Source of the DNA: an uncultured Hymenobacter sp.
GTDB taxonomy: Bacteria > Bacteroidota > Bacteroidia > Cytophagales > Hymenobacteraceae
Direction: 5' to 3'
DNA length: 64,000 nt
NCBI GenBank assembly: GCA_964243255.1
Contig: CAXTFI010000002.1
Span: forward strand, 3,243 to 67,242
Part shown: piece after piece, positions 1-9,080 of the stretch
Layout of the letters: every line of letters starts with the position of its first letter
How positions within the stretch are numbered: position 1 is the first letter of the stretch
Translations under genes and position numbers: made by a program
Notes under the pieces: model-generated
The model's input: only the letters and a program-made list of their open reading frames with translations
Databases searched by the model: none
What the model was told of the DNA's origin: nothing

Positions 1-139
1 CGCTCATGCACGTGCACGCCTCACTGAAGCGCCAAACTACGTGCACAGTATCATCGCCACTAGGACTGCACTAGTCAGTTCAGCAGTATCAGCAAGGAGG
101 ACGACAGAGTATTTTAGCGTAAAATATTACAGTGCGCTC

Positions 140-170
140 TTGCATTCTAACGTGCTGGTTGCTATATTAT
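140..170 (+). promoter_or_regulatory. Putative promoter for the downstream structured element
   Basis: TTGCAT (140-145), a 17-bp spacer and TATATT (163-168). The predicted start (~173-175) coincides with the first base of the closing stem at 174. Confidence 0.5.
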
Positions 171-173
171 AGA

Positions 174-599
174 TGAGGGCCGGTTGTAGACGACCCCTCT
201 CACTGGTTTTTTCGCAGGGTTTGTACCGGACAACAACCCTGAGCCGTTGCCTGACTAGCTCCTGAGCTGGTCAGTGTCTCACTAACTCCACGTGTTAGTA
301 GCGAGGGGCTGATTGAGAGCAACGTTCTTCTATGACTTGTAACGACTCTCACTTGCACTCCAGCGACACATCGTCGCTGCAGGCAGGGGCAGCGAAAACA
401 ACTTAGTCTCCCAAGGGGGCGGGGGGCTGACTTGTTTAGACAGCAGACGACTACAGACGTCGACGATGATAGACAGCCGTCTTCGACTAGGGATGAGCAC
501 TCACAACGAATACGCTCTGCGTCGACATTAGGGAGTACTCATCCCTAGTCGGATAGAAGAGCATACACGAGCGCATCAAGTCCCTGAACGACGTCCTCA
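174..599 (+). ncRNA. Candidate large structured non-coding RNA, family unknown
   Basis: No ORF of 60 aa or more. The 5' end TGAGGGC-cg-GTTGT (174-187) pairs with ACGACGTCCTCA (588-599). Internal stems at 215-241, 251-274, 281-299, 314-351, 361-379, 403-430 and 482-553. G-U pairs mostly favour the + strand. Confidence 0.6.
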
Positions 600-631
600 G
601 AAATCAGCCATGAACTACATCGACGCGCTTA

Positions 632-1530
632 CTACACGGCCTCCGCATACTGGTTCACGCGCTCAACCATCAATACGGCCTCGCTCGCCTGGGCCTGGTT
701 GAAGACGCCGAGCAGGCTGTGGGCCGACACCTCTGTGAACGGCGATTCAAATAACTTCTGCGTCTTCAGGAAGCCGTTGATGCCCAGGTACTGCACGATG
801 AATGAGGTTGAGGAAGCGAGACAGGAGATGAGGTTGACGACCTCCGACACATCGATGTCGGTGTCGAGCATATCGACCGACACGGCAATGTGAGACGTGC
901 TGTCCCGGTCCAAAAACTTCTTGAGCAGGTCGTGGGCATAGGTCTCGTAGTTGTCGATGACCTTGCAGTACTCGCCCTTGTACTGCGAGCACTGAGCGTT
1001 GAAGAGTTCCTAGATGAACTTGGCGTGGGCGTGATTGCGAGCGAAGACGATGGTTTTGCCAATGCGGTCGCCGGCCACCTTCACCCCGTGCGTCATCAGG
1101 TAGGCTAGCACCTGGTTGACGGTGCCTTCGTTGAAAGGTCCTTGTACTTGATGCAATGGCAGTGAAACTTCAGCAGCACCGACACGCGCAGCAGCGGCAC
1201 CTGGTAGCCGTCGCTCACGGCCCGGTTGAGTTCATAGGCAAACGTGGGCACGCCTAGTTCCAACCCGAACAGGTGGTAGGTGTCGCGGTAGCCCTCGGCG
1301 CGGGGGTAGCGGTAAGGCCCGCCCGGTAACCATCGAAGTACTCGAAAATGCCCTCTAGCGGTTGTAGACCGAGCGGTGAATCTCGTCGAAAATACTATCT
1401 GCGCCCGGCCGTGTTCCTTGTCGCGGGTGAGGTTAGCAGCCGGTAGGTTGGTTAGGCTCGTAGTCAGCGCGTTCTTAGCTTGGTTGATAAGAATGTTATG
1501 GTCGACCAGGAACAGGACGCGCTCTACCTT
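632..1530 (-). pseudogene. hsdR: Type I restriction enzyme R subunit remnant (multiple deletions, frameshifts and stops)
   Basis: Across frames: VERVLFLVD..., FDEIHRSVYNR* (DExH), [56 protein letters not shown], and C-terminal LFESPFTE. Only ~0.9 kb remains. Confidence 0.85.
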
Positions 1531-1633
1531 TGTGGGCTCCACAGGTTGCACGCATCTGACTGGCACAGGTGCTGCCCTAGCTCGAGAGTCTCTAATCCCA
1601 TCAACTTCAAAAACAGGTAAAAGAAATGCTAGC

Positions 1634-2773
1634 TCAGCTGGCAGGCTGAGTAGCATCTACAGCAGCTGCCATCACGACCCACGGCGGAAGTTTCTCTTGT
1701 TCCAGGCGGGCGTTCGTGCGCAATAATTCCTGGTACAGTGCCTGCTCGTCGGCGGTGAGGTCAACTAAGACTTGCGCCACAAAGCCAGACCCGCGCCCGT
1801 CACCATAATAGCGCCGAAACGTGGCTGCGTCCATCAGTAGCGACTGCACTGCGGGGTAGTGCGTCCGCAACTGGGCCAGTATCTGAAAACCATGCACGTC
1901 AATATCACCCCAGTAAAAAAGCTCCTTTTCGGTTAGCCAAGCGGTGCTAGCCAGCAGCCGCACGGCAAAGCCACCACCCCAAATGGTCAGGCTATCTTCG
2001 CGCAGCGGAAACGAGAGAAACGACGTGAGATTCTCGATAATAAATACGCACCGGCCGGCCAGCTGCAGCTGCCTGAACTCGCTAGCCCACACGCTTAGTT
2101 GCGATAGGGCCGGATGCAGCCGCAGTCTCTCATCCAGGAAGCGGACTTTAATAGCTGGCTCTTCCAACAGCAAGTGGAACCGCCGAAAAAAATCGTCTTC
2201 CTCCGGCCGGATGTGCTCCGCAATCAGGAAGTTGAGCAGCGGGCGCAGGGCCGCCTGGTGCTGCTCCACAAACTTGGTGGGCAGGCCCAGCGGCAGGTTG
2301 CGCACGTACTCGTTGGGCTGCGGATGTTGCTGGAAGTAAGCGCACACCGTTAGTAAAGCGGGCCAGTCGGCCGCGTTATCCAGTAGCAGCCGGGGTAGGG
2401 CGGGCAACGGTAGCAGCGCAGGCACGGTGGCGGTTGTCACGGCTACATTAGCCTCGAAGGCGGCAAACGCAGCTGCCATGTCGGTAAAAGTGAGATAATC
2501 GGCCCGCGTCTCAAATTCGATGCGGGTTATTTCGCTCTGCCGGGTTTTAGGATTAAGCTTGAGCGTGAGCGAATATCCATGCCCGGTGCGCTGCTTGGAG
2601 TGAGCCACCAACTCGGCCTGCTGGGCATAAATGTGCGCGTGGCCCTGGCTGCGGTCGAGGGCCTTGCTGGCCCGCACGGGCAGCGGAAACAAATTTTCGC
2701 CCGCCAGGTGCGCCCGTAGCACACCACCCAGCTGGCGCAGGGCCTTGGCGCGCAGCTCGGGCAGGCTAATCAT
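1634..2773 (-). CDS. jetD: Wadjet JetD TOPRIM nuclease (DUF3322 + DUF2220)
   Basis: 379 aa with VFIIENLTSF, IWGGGF, YWGDIDVHGFQIL and RLEQEKLP motifs; overlaps the jetC stop. Confidence 0.9.
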   Translation of the reverse strand: MISLPELRAKALRQLGGVLRAHLAGENLFPLPVRASKALDRSQGHAHIYAQQAELVAHSKQRTGHGYSLTLKLNPKTRQSEITRIEFETRADYLTFTDMAAAFAAFEANVAVTTATVPALLPLPALPRLLLDNAADWPALLTVCAYFQQHPQPNEYVRNLPLGLPTKFVEQHQAALRPLLNFLIAEHIRPEEDDFFRRFHLLLEEPAIKVRFLDERLRLHPALSQLSVWASEFRQLQLAGRCVFIIENLTSFLSFPLREDSLTIWGGGFAVRLLASTAWLTEKELFYWGDIDVHGFQILAQLRTHYPAVQSLLMDAATFRRYYGDGRGSGFVAQVLVDLTADEQALYQELLRTNARLEQEKLPPWVVMAAAVDATQPAS

Positions 2774-5700
2774 AGGCGGCAGCTTCTTCGGCTTCCGACT
2801 CGGCCAGCAGCGCCTCCTTGCGCTCGGCGTAGCGCCCGATAGGAATGTCCACCACCATCGACTTGCGCGTGTCGGGCTTGCCCTTGGTCACCCAGTGAAT
2901 GACTTCCACGTCCTTTTCCAGCAAATGCAGCGACGTGAGCGGCGTCACCACCATCAACTGCAAGCCCAGGCGGCGGCAGAAGTTGAGCAGGTACTTCGAC
3001 TTGTCCTCGTCGAGCTTGCTGAACGCCTCGTCAATCACGATAAACCGGAACGAGCGGGCTGCCGGCGCATCGCGCCGCCCAATGCCGAACTGGTGCGCAA
3101 TGGCCGCGCCCAGCACTGTGTAGGCCAGCTGCGCGCCCTCGCCGCCCGAGAGGCTGCCCGAGTTTTCGTACACCTGCTTCAGCTGCTTGTCTTCGCGGTA
3201 ATACTCGCGGGCCTTGAACGTCGACCACTTGCGCACATCGGTCACTTCCTGCCGCCACTTCTCGTTTTCCTTGGCTTGCAGCTCGGCGATGAAGGGCTGC
3301 ACGTGCGCCACGAAATGCGCCATTTCGGCTTCCTTCGGGTCGGGGGCCAGGACCAGCAGCGTGAGGTCGGGGCGCCAGCTGTGCAGCTGCTCCTCGCGGA
3401 AGGTGCGGATGCGCGGCACCCGCGAGTCGCTGCGCACCAACTCGATGTAGGTGTGCGGGTTGAGGTTGAAATCGATGTCGCGCAGCGACTTATTAATTTC
3501 AGTTATGGTGTCGCAAATGGCTTCATGCTGCGTTTCCAGCGACTGGCAGTAGTCGGTCAGGGCCTTGGTCACGCCCCGGTTAAACTCGTCGCGGAAGCGG
3601 GCTTCCAGCTCGGCCAGCTGCTCGGTGCGGATTTGCTCGTAGCGGTCGAGGTACTCCGGCAGCTGGTCCAGCTCGTTGCGCAGCTCGCGGGTGTCGCTGT
3701 TCCAGTCGGCAAACTTGCTCAGCACCTCCTCACCCGGCAGCAGAAAGCCCCGCATGGCCGCCCGAATGTCCTTTTCCTGCCCCTCCTTGTCGCGGTGCAG
3801 GGCGGCCAGCTGCTGCGCCACCGTGCGTTCCAGCTGCTGCTTTTGCACCAGAAACTGCGCGTAGGTCAGCACCGCCCGCACGGGCTCCGTCAGGTCGGCC
3901 AAGCCGGCGGTGGGCGGGCCTAGGTCGGCCGCGTCGAAGGTTGCAAGCAAGTGTTGCTGCGCCTGCATTTCGTCGGCCAATATCTTGAGCATTTTCTCCG
4001 TGTCCTTGAACTCGTCGCGGGTGCGCTCCCGCGCTTCATCCAGCTTTTTAAGGATTTGCCTGAGCGCGGCCAGCTGCTCTTTCAGGGTTTTGAGGGAGGC
4101 GTTTTCGCTTTCCAGCGCCTCCTTTTGCGCGGCCAGCTGCGTGATGGCCTGTACGTCGGCCTGCCAGTCCAGCTTCGGAAATTGCTGGAATAACAGAAAC
4201 GCATCCAAATCCTTTTCGCGGGCTGCGGCGCGAGCCACTTCCTTGTCCAGGCGCTGCAACTGGCTGTCCGCTTGGCTGATGGCGGTGCTCAGCTCGCGGC
4301 CCCGGCGCTGGTAGTCGCGCAGCAGCTCCCGGTTGTCCCAGCCCAGAATGTGGCGGTGGGCGGCCGAGTCGTCGCGCTCGTGCCGGTTTCTGTTGCGCGT
4401 CAGGCCCGAGGGCAGCAGCGTCTTTTCGGCCCGCTCGAAGGTGGCAAAATCCTCGGTGCACACGTAGCCGAACCGCGTCGCCACGGCGTTTTCCACCCAG
4501 TCGGCGTAGGGGCTCTTGGGATTAAAATCGAGCTTGGCCACCACCATGCGCGCATCCGGGAAAATCGGGCGCGGCGCCTTCCCATCCACTCGGTGAAACA
4601 CGACTTTGCCGCGCAGGTCGCGCTGCTGGTGCACGTGCGCCCGCACCGCCGCGTACAGGCGCTCGGGCACCAGCAGGTCGCGCCCGAAGCTGTGCAGTAG
4701 CTTTTCGAGTGCCTCGTTCCACACGGCCTTTTCCGCCGGTTTTACCTGCATGATTTCGGCCGCAAACGGGATGTCGGCCGCACTCGCGCCCACGGCGTCC
4801 AGGATTTCCTGCCGGATGTCGGCCACCCGGCCCGTCAAGTTACCGGTGCTGTTTTGCAGCTGGGTCACCTCCGCGTTTAGCTGGTCGTGGGCCGCCTGCT
4901 GGGCGTCGCGGGTGGTGCGGGCAGTGTACTTCTGCTCGTCCAGCTGCTGCCGCAGCGCCCGCGTGGCCAGCAGCGCGCTCCTCGCCTGCGCGATGTTGGC
5001 CTCAAAAAGGCCTGCGTCGGGGTCGGGCACCAGGGCCAGCTGCCGGGCCAGGCGGTTGTAGTTTTTTAGCTCGTTTTCCTTGTCCTTTTTGCTTTTCTCG
5101 AGGCTAGTAATCTGGCGTTCAAGCTCCTTGATTTCGCGGCCAATCTGGTCGTTGTCAATTTGCCCGGCCAGGCGCACGCGCTGCTCGTCGGCCGCTTCGT
5201 AGTCGGTTTCCTGCTGTGCCAGCACACCTTCGAGGCGGGTCAGCTCCCGGTCGAGGCGGGCGGTTTCGGCCGCCCAGAGCCGGATTTGCTGCTGGGCAAA
5301 CCACGGCTCTAGCCGCCGCTGGTGCTCCCTGGTGTCGCGCAACTGCTTCTGCAAGCCAGCGTAGGTGTGGCTGAGGTCGTAGACCGGGCGCAGCAGCGCG
5401 AGCTGGGTTTTGGCCTTTTCCAGCGCCCGGTACGATACCAGTAGGGTCTGGTAGTTAGCCATCAGCTTGGCGAACTCGGCTTCGGCCGTGCTTTCCTCTA
5501 GCATATTCGTCCGAATGAAGTCGTCCAAATCACCGATGACCTTCATGCCCACCGTTTGGTTGAAGAGCGTCAGGGCCTTGTCCTTCATCCCAAACAGCCG
5601 CTGAAACGCCGCCGCGTACTTCGGAAACGCGTCGAAATCCTCCACCACGCCGGCCGCAAACTGCCGCTTCAAGGTGTTCACCCACTGCGTATTGGTGCCG

Positions 5701-6200
5701 AAGCAAATGTGTTCGGCAATGCTGAGCTCGGCCTTGGCCACCAGGTAGCGGCGCTGCATCCCCGCGCCGCTGAACCACCGCACCTGCACCAGCGTGACGG
5801 GCAGGCTCTGCGAGTTGGTGAACACGCCGAGTAGTATCGAATAGGTTTGCGCCCGGTTGGGCCGCAGCTTTTCGGGCTTGGTGTTCTGCTTTTCCTCGTC
5901 CTGCGTGCGGCTGTAGTGGCCTTCCACGTACGATTCTTCGCCGCGCCCGCTCCGGCTCTCAGCCCCCGACGACTGGTTGAAAAACCGCTTCGCCGGGTTC
6001 ACCAGCAGCGCCAGCAGGCCGTCCACGAGGGTGGTTTTGCCCGAGCCGTTGCTGCCCGTCAGCAGCGTGTTCTGGCCGTCGGGCACCAGCCGCCAGATGT
6101 CCTGCCCGCTGCCCTCGTGAAACGTGCCCCAGTTGAACACCTCTAGCGCCTTGAGCCGGTAGCCCGCCGGCCCGGCCGTCGCATCAAACAGATTCAGCAT
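2766..6200 (-). CDS. jetC: Wadjet JetC SMC-family ATPase
   Basis: 1144 aa with LEVFNWGTF, Walker A GSNGSGKTT, long coiled coils, signature LSGGE and Walker B FIVIDEAFSKLD. Confidence 0.92.
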   Translation of the reverse strand: MLNLFDATAGPAGYRLKALEVFNWGTFHEGSGQDIWRLVPDGQNTLLTGSNGSGKTTLVDGLLALLVNPAKRFFNQSSGAESRSGRGEESYVEGHYSRTQDEEKQNTKPEKLRPNRAQTYSILLGVFTNSQSLPVTLVQVRWFSGAGMQRRYLVAKAELSIAEHICFGTNTQWVNTLKRQFAAGVVEDFDAFPKYAAAFQRLFGMKDKALTLFNQTVGMKVIGDLDDFIRTNMLEESTAEAEFAKLMANYQTLLVSYRALEKAKTQLALLRPVYDLSHTYAGLQKQLRDTREHQRRLEPWFAQQQIRLWAAETARLDRELTRLEGVLAQQETDYEAADEQRVRLAGQIDNDQIGREIKELERQITSLEKSKKDKENELKNYNRLARQLALVPDPDAGLFEANIAQARSALLATRALRQQLDEQKYTARTTRDAQQAAHDQLNAEVTQLQNSTGNLTGRVADIRQEILDAVGASAADIPFAAEIMQVKPAEKAVWNEALEKLLHSFGRDLLVPERLYAAVRAHVHQQRDLRGKVVFHRVDGKAPRPIFPDARMVVAKLDFNPKSPYADWVENAVATRFGYVCTEDFATFERAEKTLLPSGLTRNRNRHERDDSAAHRHILGWDNRELLRDYQRRGRELSTAISQADSQLQRLDKEVARAAAREKDLDAFLLFQQFPKLDWQADVQAITQLAAQKEALESENASLKTLKEQLAALRQILKKLDEARERTRDEFKDTEKMLKILADEMQAQQHLLATFDAADLGPPTAGLADLTEPVRAVLTYAQFLVQKQQLERTVAQQLAALHRDKEGQEKDIRAAMRGFLLPGEEVLSKFADWNSDTRELRNELDQLPEYLDRYEQIRTEQLAELEARFRDEFNRGVTKALTDYCQSLETQHEAICDTITEINKSLRDIDFNLNPHTYIELVRSDSRVPRIRTFREEQLHSWRPDLTLLVLAPDPKEAEMAHFVAHVQPFIAELQAKENEKWRQEVTDVRKWSTFKAREYYREDKQLKQVYENSGSLSGGEGAQLAYTVLGAAIAHQFGIGRRDAPAARSFRFIVIDEAFSKLDEDKSKYLLNFCRRLGLQLMVVTPLTSLHLLEKDVEVIHWVTKGKPDTRKSMVVDIPIGRYAERKEALLAESEAEEAAAYD

Positions 6201-6716
6201 GAGTACGCAGTTTTTCGAGGAATTCGCCGAGTTTTTCTAGGCTGATTTTGGCCTTCAGCAAAGGCTTCACTTCGTAGCGCGTCTGGTCGGGGTTGAGGTC
6301 GTCTTTGCTGACGATTTTCAGCAAGCCGTTCTCCGTCAGACGCTCAATGAGGACATCCAGCTTTTCTAGCAATCCTTGTGGTTGGCCTGCTGCCGGAAAA
6401 ACAGCTCTATCCGCTCGCGCAGCTGCTCGCGGGTAGCATACAGGCGCGGGCTGGCGGCGTGGGCGCTGCTTTCGTGCTCCTCCAGCCACTCGCGCAGCAC
6501 TACGCACAGCAGGGCCTGCTCGTAGCTCAGCGGCACCCGGCGCAGCAGGCGCAGGGGCGGAGCCGGGTCGTCTTCGGCGGGCTCAGGCTGGGTGAGGCGA
6601 GCGTAGCCCTCAGCCCGGTTCAGGTCGAGCACGATGCCTAGCTGCGCGAAGTGCGCCCGCACGGCTGCCTCGTGCCCCTCCAGCTGCTGCCAGTAGGAGC
6701 GGTCGTTGAGGTCGCA
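6184..6716 (-). pseudogene. jetB: Wadjet JetB (DUF4194); N-terminus deleted and fused to jetA, with a frameshift at ~6375
   Basis: WQQLEGHEAAVRAHFAQLGIVLDLNRAEGYA...LSYEQALLCVVLRE lies in the 6366-7592 frame. The C-terminus LLEKLDVLIERL...YEVKPLLKAKI is in another frame ending at 6184. Confidence 0.8.
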
Positions 6717-7598
6717 GAGGGCGTGGGCGGCCACCACCTGGCGCAGCGTTACCTGGCTGTGGGTGCGCAGCAGGGCATTGATATTGGCCATGAGGGCGGC
6801 CTTGTCCACCACGCGGGTGCTCACCAGGGCCGTTAGCTTGGGCTCTGCCGGCTGCACCACGCTTAGCACACGGGGCACAATGGCGCTTTCGCGCTCCTTC
6901 AGCGCCACCGTGCTTTCGGTGCCGAGGTAGTCGGCGCGGCCTTCCAACTCCAGAAAAGCCGGGTCTTTGGGCGGGTCGCCCATCACCTCAAAAGCCAGCG
7001 CCCGAATGTCGTTGATAAGCAGCTGCGACTTGCGGCGGTCGCGCAGGCTCTTCTCCGACAAAATCTTCTCCAACTTGCGGGCCAGCGCGTAAAACGAGTC
7101 GTTCACTTTGCGGCCCTCGCCGTGCAGATACACCCGGATTTTGCGTAGAAACTCGTCGCCGGTCGTCAGGCCCCGGTCGTGCAGCAGCTCAAATACCTGG
7201 CGCACCAGCGCATCTAGTTCGGCTCGCTGCCGAGGGTCGTTGAGATGCCGGTAGAAGGCCTCGAAACTGCAGCCCTGATTAGTAAGGCGCAACTCATCCA
7301 GTGCATCGAGGGCCAGGCCCAACAGGCCGCCCTTGGTGTGGTTGGCGGTAGACTGCTGCTCGTAAATGCGCTGGGTAATGTCCCGGAAATTGCCCTCCAC
7401 TTCCCGGAAATCGCGCAGCAGGCCCCACGCCGCGCCGCTCACCGTCTGGTAGCGCTCCTCAATCTCGTAGTCTTCGTAAGTCCGCGCGGTTTTAGTCAGC
7501 TTCAACTCCCGAATCTGGGCGTCGAGAGCGCTGCGCTGCTTTTCCAGCTCGGCTAGCCGGGCCTGCCAGTCGTCGGCCGAGTTTTGCACCAACTCGCT
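6717..7598 (-). pseudogene. jetA: Wadjet JetA (DUF3375), lacking N- and C-termini
   Basis: Starts mid-protein at ELVQNSADDWQARLAELEKQR; contains LLRDFREVEGNFR and NQGCSFEAFY; runs directly into JetB sequence after QVTLRQVVAAH. Confidence 0.8.
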
Positions 7599-7745: not shown

Positions 7746-9080
7746 ATGGAAGTAGATAGTCATTTTTATGATGAATTTCGCCGACAAGGCAAGCTGCTAA
7801 TGCCTGACCGGCCGGTACTGCTGGCCTTACTAAAACTCTACACTTGGCTTGCTACCGCAGGGGCCGACTTTTTTACGGAAGACCAGTTGCGGAATGCCTT
7901 GAAAGCCGGTGAGGCAGATTCTCCCGATACAGAGCACAATCCGCTTTACACGCCGTGGCAGCGGCATACCCTGACGGTACGGGAGCTGCAGGTGTATTGG
8001 CTACTGCGGGGCGTGGAATCAGGTACGACAGCGACTTATCGGTTTAAGCCCCATGCCAGGGCCATCTGCAAGCGCTTGCACTCTACTTTGTTTAGTAAGC
8101 TGGTGGTTAGTCAGGTGGAAGCGGCTTTTCGTCGCCTGCGGGAAGGACTCGGGGAAAGCGAGGAGGACTTTTTGAACTGGGCGCGGGAACTGCTGCCGTT
8201 GGGCCTGGAGGTGGAGCAACAACTGGTAGCCTTGGACAACGACATTGAGGATACAATCCGCCAGTTGCGGCAGCAAACTAGCCAAAGTGAGGAGTCCTTC
8301 CTGGCGGTACTGGACTACGTGAGCGCAACGCTAGATAACCTGTTGCAAAAAGCCGATGAGCTTAACCGCGCCTTCGACCAGGCGGCGGGCCTGGAGCAGG
8401 AGCTGACCCGCATTTACACGGCCAAGCAGTACGAGAGCGAGGCAGTGGACCGGGAGGCGCGGGAAGCCCTGCGCTTTATTCGCCGCGCCCGCCAGCGCCT
8501 CAACGAACTAAGCCTGCGGCTCGATTGGGTGCGGCCCCGCGTGCGGGCAGTATTTGGCAACTTAAAAAAGCTGCGGTTTGACCGCAAAACCGAACAGTTT
8601 TTAGAACGGCTACTGAATGCTGAGCCAGTGACCAAACCTCAACTGCCGGCTGGGGTAGCACTGGCGCGCCTTGTTTACCAGCCTTTGCGCTACGAGCGGG
8701 TGCCCCACGCGGGGCAAGTGCTGCCCGCCGTACCGGTGCCTGCGGCCGTGCGGACTATTAACCAGCGGGCTCAACAAGATTTTAAAGCCAAAACGGAGGA
8801 AATGCTGCGCGTGCGGAGCCGCGTGCAACACTGGCTGGCCCAACTGCGCGCTGAGCTATGGGAGCCCGGTGCCGTGGTTGATTTCAGGGTGTTTGGGCAG
8901 CGCCTCGCCGATGATGAAGGGTCGGTGGCCTACGAAGTATTGGCGCAGGTGCTGGCCACGGTGCGGCGCGAAGATGAGCTTGACCGAAACTGGCAGCTGC
9001 ACGTTACGGCGCAAGAGGAAGAAATTGAAAATGAGTTTGGTACTATCAATTTATGGAAGCTGACGCTGACCAACCCCTAG
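7746..9080 (+). CDS. Putative kleisin subunit (JetA/MksF-like) of a second SMC system
   Basis: 444 aa, helical with a central coiled coil; first gene of a tightly coupled four-gene operon. Assigned mainly by position and size. Confidence 0.55.
   Translation: MEVDSHFYDEFRRQGKLLMPDRPVLLALLKLYTWLATAGADFFTEDQLRNALKAGEADSPDTEHNPLYTPWQRHTLTVRELQVYWLLRGVESGTTATYRFKPHARAICKRLHSTLFSKLVVSQVEAAFRRLREGLGESEEDFLNWARELLPLGLEVEQQLVALDNDIEDTIRQLRQQTSQSEESFLAVLDYVSATLDNLLQKADELNRAFDQAAGLEQELTRIYTAKQYESEAVDREAREALRFIRRARQRLNELSLRLDWVRPRVRAVFGNLKKLRFDRKTEQFLERLLNAEPVTKPQLPAGVALARLVYQPLRYERVPHAGQVLPAVPVPAAVRTINQRAQQDFKAKTEEMLRVRSRVQHWLAQLRAELWEPGAVVDFRVFGQRLADDEGSVAYEVLAQVLATVRREDELDRNWQLHVTAQEEEIENEFGTINLWKLTLTNP

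Follow-up and report, generated by a model that had tools for sequence, protein, structure and literature searches.

What occupies the gene-free stretch at the edge of a defence island in a Hymenobacter genome, and does it work as RNA or as DNA? The question is raised by the window analysed here, a 64-kb stretch of DNA taken from contig 2 (bases 3243-67242) of a metagenome-assembled Hymenobacter genome (G000 hereafter), which originates from a lichen metagenome, comprises 417 contigs and is 86% complete. The sequencing runs listed as containing this DNA are lichen-metagenome DNA runs, one of them possibly the source sample, with no RNA run among them. A first-pass annotation had described at 174-599 an RNA candidate of about 426 nt, with its own promoter, many stems and a closing helix, and had proposed that it belonged to a retron-like or DRT-like defence ribonucleoprotein. 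The comparison with homologous loci supports a promoter-driven, highly structured non-coding RNA candidate of no known family, but both the outline of the element and its proposed role had to be redrawn.

Homologues, promoter and boundaries

Homologues, which the first-pass annotation had suggested looking for, were found at eight intact loci, all of them in Hymenobacter (seven genomes and one metagenome contig), and a ninth copy is decayed. According to BLAST and to a covariance model of the best-conserved module (R1, scoring 72-85 bits on the intact copies), the element is present in 8 of approximately 151-165 species-representative Hymenobacter genomes. Six of the eight intact copies are full-length. 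The carriers are:

G000, the window genome
G033, H. mellowenesis M29
G074, H. chitinivorans
G136, strain HSC-4F20
G188
G082, H. frigidus
G129, strain CCM 8763
L066, a metagenome contig reached via close hsdR orthologues, with an intact copy 70% identical to that of G000
G167, with a decayed copy (L057:1490-1790) that runs into an IS5-like transposase fragment

In the decayed G167 copy the first conserved hairpin (H1, see below) is truncated, with four bases lost, and an insertion-sequence fragment lies inside the element; it thus offers a useful comparison with copies that have been maintained. Beyond Hymenobacter the element was found neither in a pattern search across 401 genomes of the order nor in a pattern scan of GTDB representative genomes, and searches of plasmid records and viral contigs gave no match either. 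Five near-identical metagenome contigs (L033-L037) carry only the short motif in GC-rich, coding-like DNA and were judged to match by chance. A match in G168 was excluded, as it resembles these contigs and falls below the R1 model threshold. The G168 contig 49 (L030/L025) is placed in Hymenobacter by GTDB and bears the public title of a Janthinobacterium lividum MAG, which may reflect a mislabel or a binning problem.

The features of the window copy and of its surroundings, in window coordinates, are the following:

140-170, plus strand: promoter, with a -33 TTG (140-142), a 20-nt spacer and the -7 box TATATTAT (163-170)
174-202, plus strand: 5' hairpin GAGGG...CCCTC, from the fold of 174-445, conserved in G033
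205-215, plus strand: unpaired U-run GGUUUUUUCGC, near-invariant in the alignment of the eight copies
215-241, plus strand: hairpin H1, a stem of roughly 10 bp interrupted by a single bulge, loop ACCGG
241-265, plus strand: linker GAGCCGUUGCCUGAnnnGCUCCUG, conserved in the alignments
251-299, plus strand: variable region with hairpins at 251-274 and 281-299, replaced by different hairpins in other clades
314-351, plus strand: hairpin H5, with the invariant interior CAACGUU...GACUUGUAACGA
361-379, plus strand: hairpin H6, free in sequence and kept in structure
397-437, plus strand: hairpin H7, whose CU-rich arm pairs with the second G-run and is followed by CUUGUUU
484-551, assigned to neither strand: long hairpin, possibly not part of the RNA, with arms of 19 nt (484-502/533-551) that are 95% complementary
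588-599, plus strand: 3' arm of the closing stem proposed earlier, unconserved
610-702 (contig 3852-3944), plus strand: 30-codon frame after an ATG, overlapping the hsdR remnant in antisense, not a gene
632-1656, minus strand: hsdR pseudogene of a type I restriction system, the right-hand neighbour, converging on the element
1634-2773: Wadjet JetD, beyond the hsdR remnant
2766-6200: Wadjet JetC, next to JetD
6366-7592: Wadjet JetA/B fusion-like ORF

The two hexamers of the promoter aimed at about base 174 are present on the plus strand as previously described (TTGCAT at 140-145 and TATATT at 163-168, 17 nt apart). The pattern that is kept is of the Bacteroidota type, TTG-N20-TAnnTTAT, on the plus strand of all six full-length copies despite their diverged spacers; it occurs twice in the 64-kb window, against 0.11 occurrences expected by chance. 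Transcription is predicted to start at about 174-177. In the G074 clade the promoter lies approximately 90 bases further upstream, which results in a longer leader. Leaders differ among clades, and the 5' hairpin at 174-202 belongs to the G000/G033 clade only. In H. mellowenesis the sequence of the RNA start, TTAATGAGGG..., is repeated 123 nt upstream (L020:7947-7962 and 8070-8085), directly after the stop codon of a gene for a T9SS-sorted protein, and a 23-nt unit is tandemly duplicated just after H7 (L020:8350-8396).

The 3' boundary is where the homologues depart most from the original outline of 426 nt. Sequence conservation between G000 and its closest relatives ends near base 445, and the conserved unit as judged from the alignments is the stretch from about 174 to a G-rich, terminator-like hairpin ending at about 440-445, and not to 599. 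This hairpin, H7, is conserved and was flagged by a terminator scan, and it is probably the 3' end of the RNA; as a terminator it is weak, with a short, interrupted and partly paired U-tail (CUUGUUU). The closing stem 174-187/588-599 does pair in the minimum-free-energy fold, but it has no counterpart in G033 or L066; the 5' end pairs locally instead, in the hairpin at 174-202, and the long-distance pairing is probably fortuitous. An ATG is indeed found after it, at 610, but it opens only the 30-codon frame antisense to the hsdR pseudogene listed above.

The element itself is not coding: all frames are short (at most 56 aa), and no plus-strand ORF of 40 aa or more follows it in the window. Another 30-codon frame, from an ATG at 173, was considered as a small peptide and rejected; it is shared by G000 and G033, L066 has its frame or start displaced, and in the G074 clade it is closed. 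The possibility of a decayed coding sequence, raised by the first-pass annotation against its own candidate, is not borne out by the copies, which have no conserved reading frame and differ by indels that are not multiples of three. The statement that the element matches no recognised family holds as well. Searches with the Rfam 15 covariance models, which cover families including retron, group II intron, RNase P, tmRNA, 6S, ROOL, GOLLD and HEARO, gave only chance microRNA matches in window bases 1-3000 (E<=1), at the contig start (gathering threshold) and at five homologous loci (E<=0.1).

Decay is visible at the locus of the element in the window genome, where a gene-free stretch of about 1.3 kb accompanies the hsdR pseudogene. 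What is left of hsdR covers only about residues 391-1111 of an intact orthologue and is spread over several frames; this remnant corresponds to the C-terminal two thirds of the gene, has lost internal segments, changes frame and lies against the 3' end of jetD. To the left of the window the same contig has approximately 900 gene-free bases, followed by an AbiEi/AbiEii pair and, where the contig ends, by an IS5 fragment. A conserved plus-strand motif, approximately RSTTAGCnATnTAnTGyrC, lies 160-550 nt upstream of the element in seven of the eight loci, in one to three copies; in the window genome it is found at contig positions ~3009-3040 and 3155-3186, just left of the window. One related island has the motif without the element; the sequences with the motif, taken together, are L003 (the window contig), L066, L021, L022, L023, L024, L029 and L067. 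The 14-nt core of the motif forms a perfect inverted repeat with the RNA leader in the G074 clade. The motif could be an operator or an iteron.

Folding, covariation and strand

The stems and the long hairpin listed by the first-pass annotation are all in the sequence at the places given (216-222/235-241, 251-260/265-274, 281-286/294-299, 314-319/346-351, 361-367/373-379 and 403-412/421-430, besides the hairpin at 484-551). The suspected excess of folding energy is also real: the plus strand of 174-599 folds at -164.5 kcal/mol (z -3.54), and none of 100 dinucleotide shuffles was as good. The minus strand gives a similar value (z -3.75), and since both strands are equally structured, that span alone cannot separate an RNA from palindrome-rich DNA. 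When the calculation is restricted to 174-445, the plus strand folds as RNA at -108.8 kcal/mol (z -3.06, with none of 200 shuffles as good), versus -91.9 kcal/mol for the minus strand (z -1.40, 19 of 200 shuffles as good). The consensus fold gives -57.4 kcal/mol on the plus strand versus -47.8 on the minus strand, and the consensus structure on the plus strand has 31 G-U cells and one A-C cell, as compared with 17 G-U and 18 A-C cells in the best minus-strand structure. When DNA parameters are used, H7 is lost and the two strands score about equally (z -2.8 and -3.1). Some parts point the other way: the G074 clade carries an inserted hairpin whose plus-strand A-C mismatches would read as G-U pairs on the opposite strand, and a minus-strand preference is seen in segments A and D of some copies.

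The covariation proposed as a check by the first-pass annotation was found in the core. In positions 308-455 of six sequences 98.6% of the cells are paired, and 12 of the 36 core base pairs are changed on both sides, against 3.9 +/- 1.4 in shuffles (none of 500 reached 12) and only one to three pairs when the partners are slid; these statistics are modest, as the set holds six full-length sequences of about four lineages and the shuffle control overstates significance for kin. The comparison shows predicted helices that are kept by compensating changes and a pairing that would work only on the plus strand as RNA, the latter because of the reliance on many G-U pairs.

Individual helices differ in how they are conserved. 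H1 is the best-conserved module, present in all eight intact copies, with 95.4% of its cells paired in the alignment; one of its pairs is A-U, G-C or U-A across copies, and another is U-A in four copies and C-G in three. In H5 every cell is paired in the six copies, with changes from A-U to G-C and G-U, and in H6 all five pairs are changed on both sides. H7 has 12 pairs, many of them U-G, with 100% of the cells paired, and its G-runs (415-419 and 421-426 in the window) form a double G-run that recurs in all eight intact copies. The G082 and G129 copies keep H1, the linker and the double G-run hairpin, with different hairpins in between. The last seven bases of the linker (259-265) can pair with 382-388 in six copies (7/7, 5/7, 6/7, 7/7, 7/7 and 7/7 positions), with wobble changes only, and may form a long-range helix. 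Short direct repeats, TGACTTGT and GCAGCAA, each occur twice inside the element; together with the repeated upstream motif they would also fit protein-binding sites on DNA. Downstream of the conserved unit, the long hairpin at 484-551 has a conserved base (CGAYnAGGG/CCCTnGTCG) and a variable interior, and its middle base pair is T-A, G-C or A-T depending on the copy; in three of five copies the minus strand gives the better fold of this segment.

Genomic islands and neighbours

The element sits in integrase-bearing islands, beside type I restriction or metal-efflux cargo. In G188 and G074 the tyrosine integrase, which has an arm-binding domain, is followed by uncharacterised genes, an SH3 protein, the element and a metal-efflux/P-type ATPase cargo. 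The same kind of metal cargo lies to the right of the element in G136, with an MmeI-type enzyme and an SH3 protein to its left; the integrase is absent from that 45-kb contig. In G082 and G129 the order is integrase, hsdM, hsdS, hsdR, element, AAA_24 and/or DUF3871, an XRE regulator and a tRNA-Gly(CCC), the latter about 3 kb away on the backbone side, and in G033 the element is separated from hsdR by genes for GmrSD and a SEC-C protein. Five loci have an XRE regulator. NCBIfam gave no family names for the uncharacterised proteins beside the integrase, and nothing relevant was found in the literature on DUF3871 or on Hymenobacter RNA motifs.

More widely, a family of Hymenobacter integrative islands (L024, L029, L066-L069 and L040) shares a backbone and has interchangeable cargo. 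Besides the tyrosine integrase and its arm-binding domain, the backbone includes DUF3871, AAA_24, an XRE regulator and a small SH3 protein, and the cargo may be type I restriction, extra helicases, a peptidase with an AAA ATPase, or metal efflux. In the 80 kb around the G188 copy (L038-L041) a GTPase-associated conflict system (GASH, DO-GTPase1 and DO-GTPase2) is found alongside metal-resistance genes.

The arrangement of promoter, non-coding RNA and then a protein gene, on which the first-pass annotation had relied, is not what the homologues present. None of the eight intact loci has a gene on the plus strand after the element, and the right-hand gene in each (hsdR, GmrSD, a P-type ATPase or an HMA protein) converges on it from the minus strand, ending 30-450 nt away. 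Left-hand genes are also on the minus strand in most loci. The AAA_24-DUF3871 genes adjoin the element, in divergent orientation, in G074, G082 and G129. Neither of these neighbours was accepted as an obligatory partner: six other AAA_24 loci of the genus have no element within 1.5 kb and four close hsdR orthologues lie in other islands without it, so the element is bound to neither. Relatives of the SH3 protein were examined at three loci, and none of these has the element. In G000, G033 and L066 the island backbone genes are absent, yet the structure is kept through about 30% divergence.

Possible roles and significance of the element

We consider it rather probable that the element is a real RNA gene of the plus strand. 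The reading that we favour, with moderate confidence, is that the stretch from about 174 to 440 encodes a stand-alone structured non-coding RNA of approximately 270 nt, belonging to an undescribed family carried by integrase-bearing islands of Hymenobacter; the version of related clades would be about 360 nt, with a longer leader. A stand-alone RNA is the best reading because the promoter, the covariation and the dependence on plus-strand G-U pairs all speak for it. The main rival, which seems unlikely to us, is an island element that acts as DNA: a single-strand origin or priming site, an oriT for a helper relaxase, or an iteron origin served by AAA_24-DUF3871. The location inside integrative islands and the AAA_24-DUF3871 genes that adjoin three of the copies would suit such a site, as would the folds beyond chance on both strands with DNA parameters, the repeats within and upstream of the element, and the block formed by H1 and the linker (block A), which is conserved nearly base for base, like a protein recognition site. 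The conserved plus-strand promoter would be left unexplained, however, and H7 and several other stems make use of G-U pairs and vanish or weaken as DNA. Moreover, Pfam and NCBIfam find no relaxase, Rep or conjugation gene in the flanking genes tested, several island proteins being without a family; block A was found in no other GTDB representative genome, plasmid or viral contig searched, which argues against a helper element with the same site; and the structure persists in the three copies that lack the backbone genes. Since the right-hand gene is on the minus strand at every locus, as are left-hand genes at most, and the distal long hairpin folds better on that strand in three of five copies, the element might instead be part of the minus-strand transcripts on either side, as a structured 3' UTR, a terminator or an insulator separating cargo from backbone operons, or act from the plus strand as an antisense brake in cis on a converging cargo gene such as hsdR. 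This we regard as distinctly improbable: the core clearly folds better on the plus strand, the converging gene varies from hsdR to GmrSD, the ATPase or the HMA protein, which makes a specific target unlikely, and the four other islands with close hsdR orthologues do without the element.

The original proposal of a retron-like or DRT-like RNA whose reverse transcriptase or other effector has been lost or lies elsewhere is largely refuted, and we give it very little credence. It drew on a promoter-driven structured RNA in a defence-rich island (Wadjet, type I restriction, AbiE), and some DRT-associated RNAs are of a similar size. The link with defence amounts to co-location only, and three of the eight intact copies flank metal-resistance cargo instead. 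In addition, the RVT_1 profile has no match in the whole assembly (86% complete), no Rfam family is matched, the closing inverted repeat is unconserved and none of the intact loci has a plus-strand gene after the element. Least credible of all is a decayed-gene remnant or a functionless set of palindromes that came together by chance. The window locus, with its hsdR pseudogene and gene-free kilobase, would lend itself to such a view, but compensating changes, a conserved promoter spacing, indels that ignore the reading frame and the lack of any conserved frame speak for maintenance, and the truly decayed G167 copy displays what neglect looks like, with its truncated H1 and inserted fragment.

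If the stand-alone RNA is the correct reading, the transcript would be made by the host polymerase and would fold into H1 and a multi-helix core. Several near-invariant stretches are unpaired in the consensus fold, namely the U-run, the linker GAGCMGYUGCCURA, the interior of H5 and the exposed G-run, and these would contact a partner, protein or nucleic acid, encoded elsewhere. Near-invariant unpaired stretches among covarying stems suggest a partner-binding scaffold. As for the role of the RNA, we tentatively guess that it might serve the upkeep of the island, either by copy control or priming of replication after excision, or by regulation of backbone genes; the guess is a doubtful one and is made because the RNA travels with the island backbone (AAA_24-DUF3871 being adjacent in three lineages) and because the double G-run is universal. 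A more specific version, which appears quite unlikely, is that the RNA is the core of a novel type of maintenance or conflict module of Bacteroidota islands, in which a structured RNA acting independently of protein would, through an R-loop or quadruplex formed by its double G-run, prime or gate the replication of the island after excision, or in which a ribonucleoprotein with a protein encoded elsewhere would protect or police the cargo slot. We do not think that the RNA would template cDNA.

Retron non-coding RNAs (msr-msd) are followed immediately, in the same orientation, by a reverse transcriptase gene and are closed by the terminal inverted repeats a1/a2. Like these and the DRT RNAs, the element is promoter-proximal, has multiple hairpins, measures a few hundred bases and is located among defence genes; unlike them, it lacks a neighbouring reverse transcriptase, its ends carry no conserved inverted repeat, and the next gene is convergent. 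No reverse-transcriptase domain was found in the flanking genes tested at the homologous loci. With large orphan RNAs of prophages and mobile elements, such as ROOL and GOLLD, and with motifs of plasmid replication regions, such as ARRPOF, the element shares the many covarying helices, the near-invariant unpaired stretches, the residence on mobile DNA and the lack of an explanatory neighbour gene, but it does not match their covariance models, is shorter (~270-360 nt) and has so far been seen in one genus, at nine loci.

The element also resembles the primer or R-loop RNAs of replicons (ColE1 RNA II, the G-run of mitochondrial CSB II) in that a promoter precedes a structured RNA with a conserved pair of G-runs and no element-specific initiator protein is needed. 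These cases can serve only as a lead; the G-run of the element is partly sequestered in a hairpin, and the element persists where the island backbone is gone. Single-strand origins, ssi/Frpo-type elements and oriT are likewise non-coding, orientation-specific, hairpin-rich and carried by integrative elements; in contrast to them, the element has G-U-dependent stems and a conserved promoter of its own, no relaxase or Rep was recognised nearby, and none of the plasmid records is similar to it in sequence. The mobilisation sRNA of SGI1, as outlined in PMC9299015, indicates that an island may depend on a small RNA of its own in order to be mobilised.

Thus, we take the element to represent a real, previously undescribed family of structured-RNA candidates with a narrow range. 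Structured RNAs of 270-360 nt with at least seven helices and no known family are rare, and earlier cases opened new biology. Several of the carriers are cultured type strains, and the candidate is therefore directly testable; the cultured carriers include H. frigidus CGMCC 1.14966, H. mellowenesis M29 and H. chitinivorans. The RNA would mark Hymenobacter integrative islands that swap restriction, defence and metal-resistance cargo beside it; if it should prove to be a DNA-level site instead, the element would still define the junction between backbone and cargo of these islands. As regulatory RNAs are poorly known in Bacteroidota, it may inform how the islands of this phylum are kept, copied or regulated.
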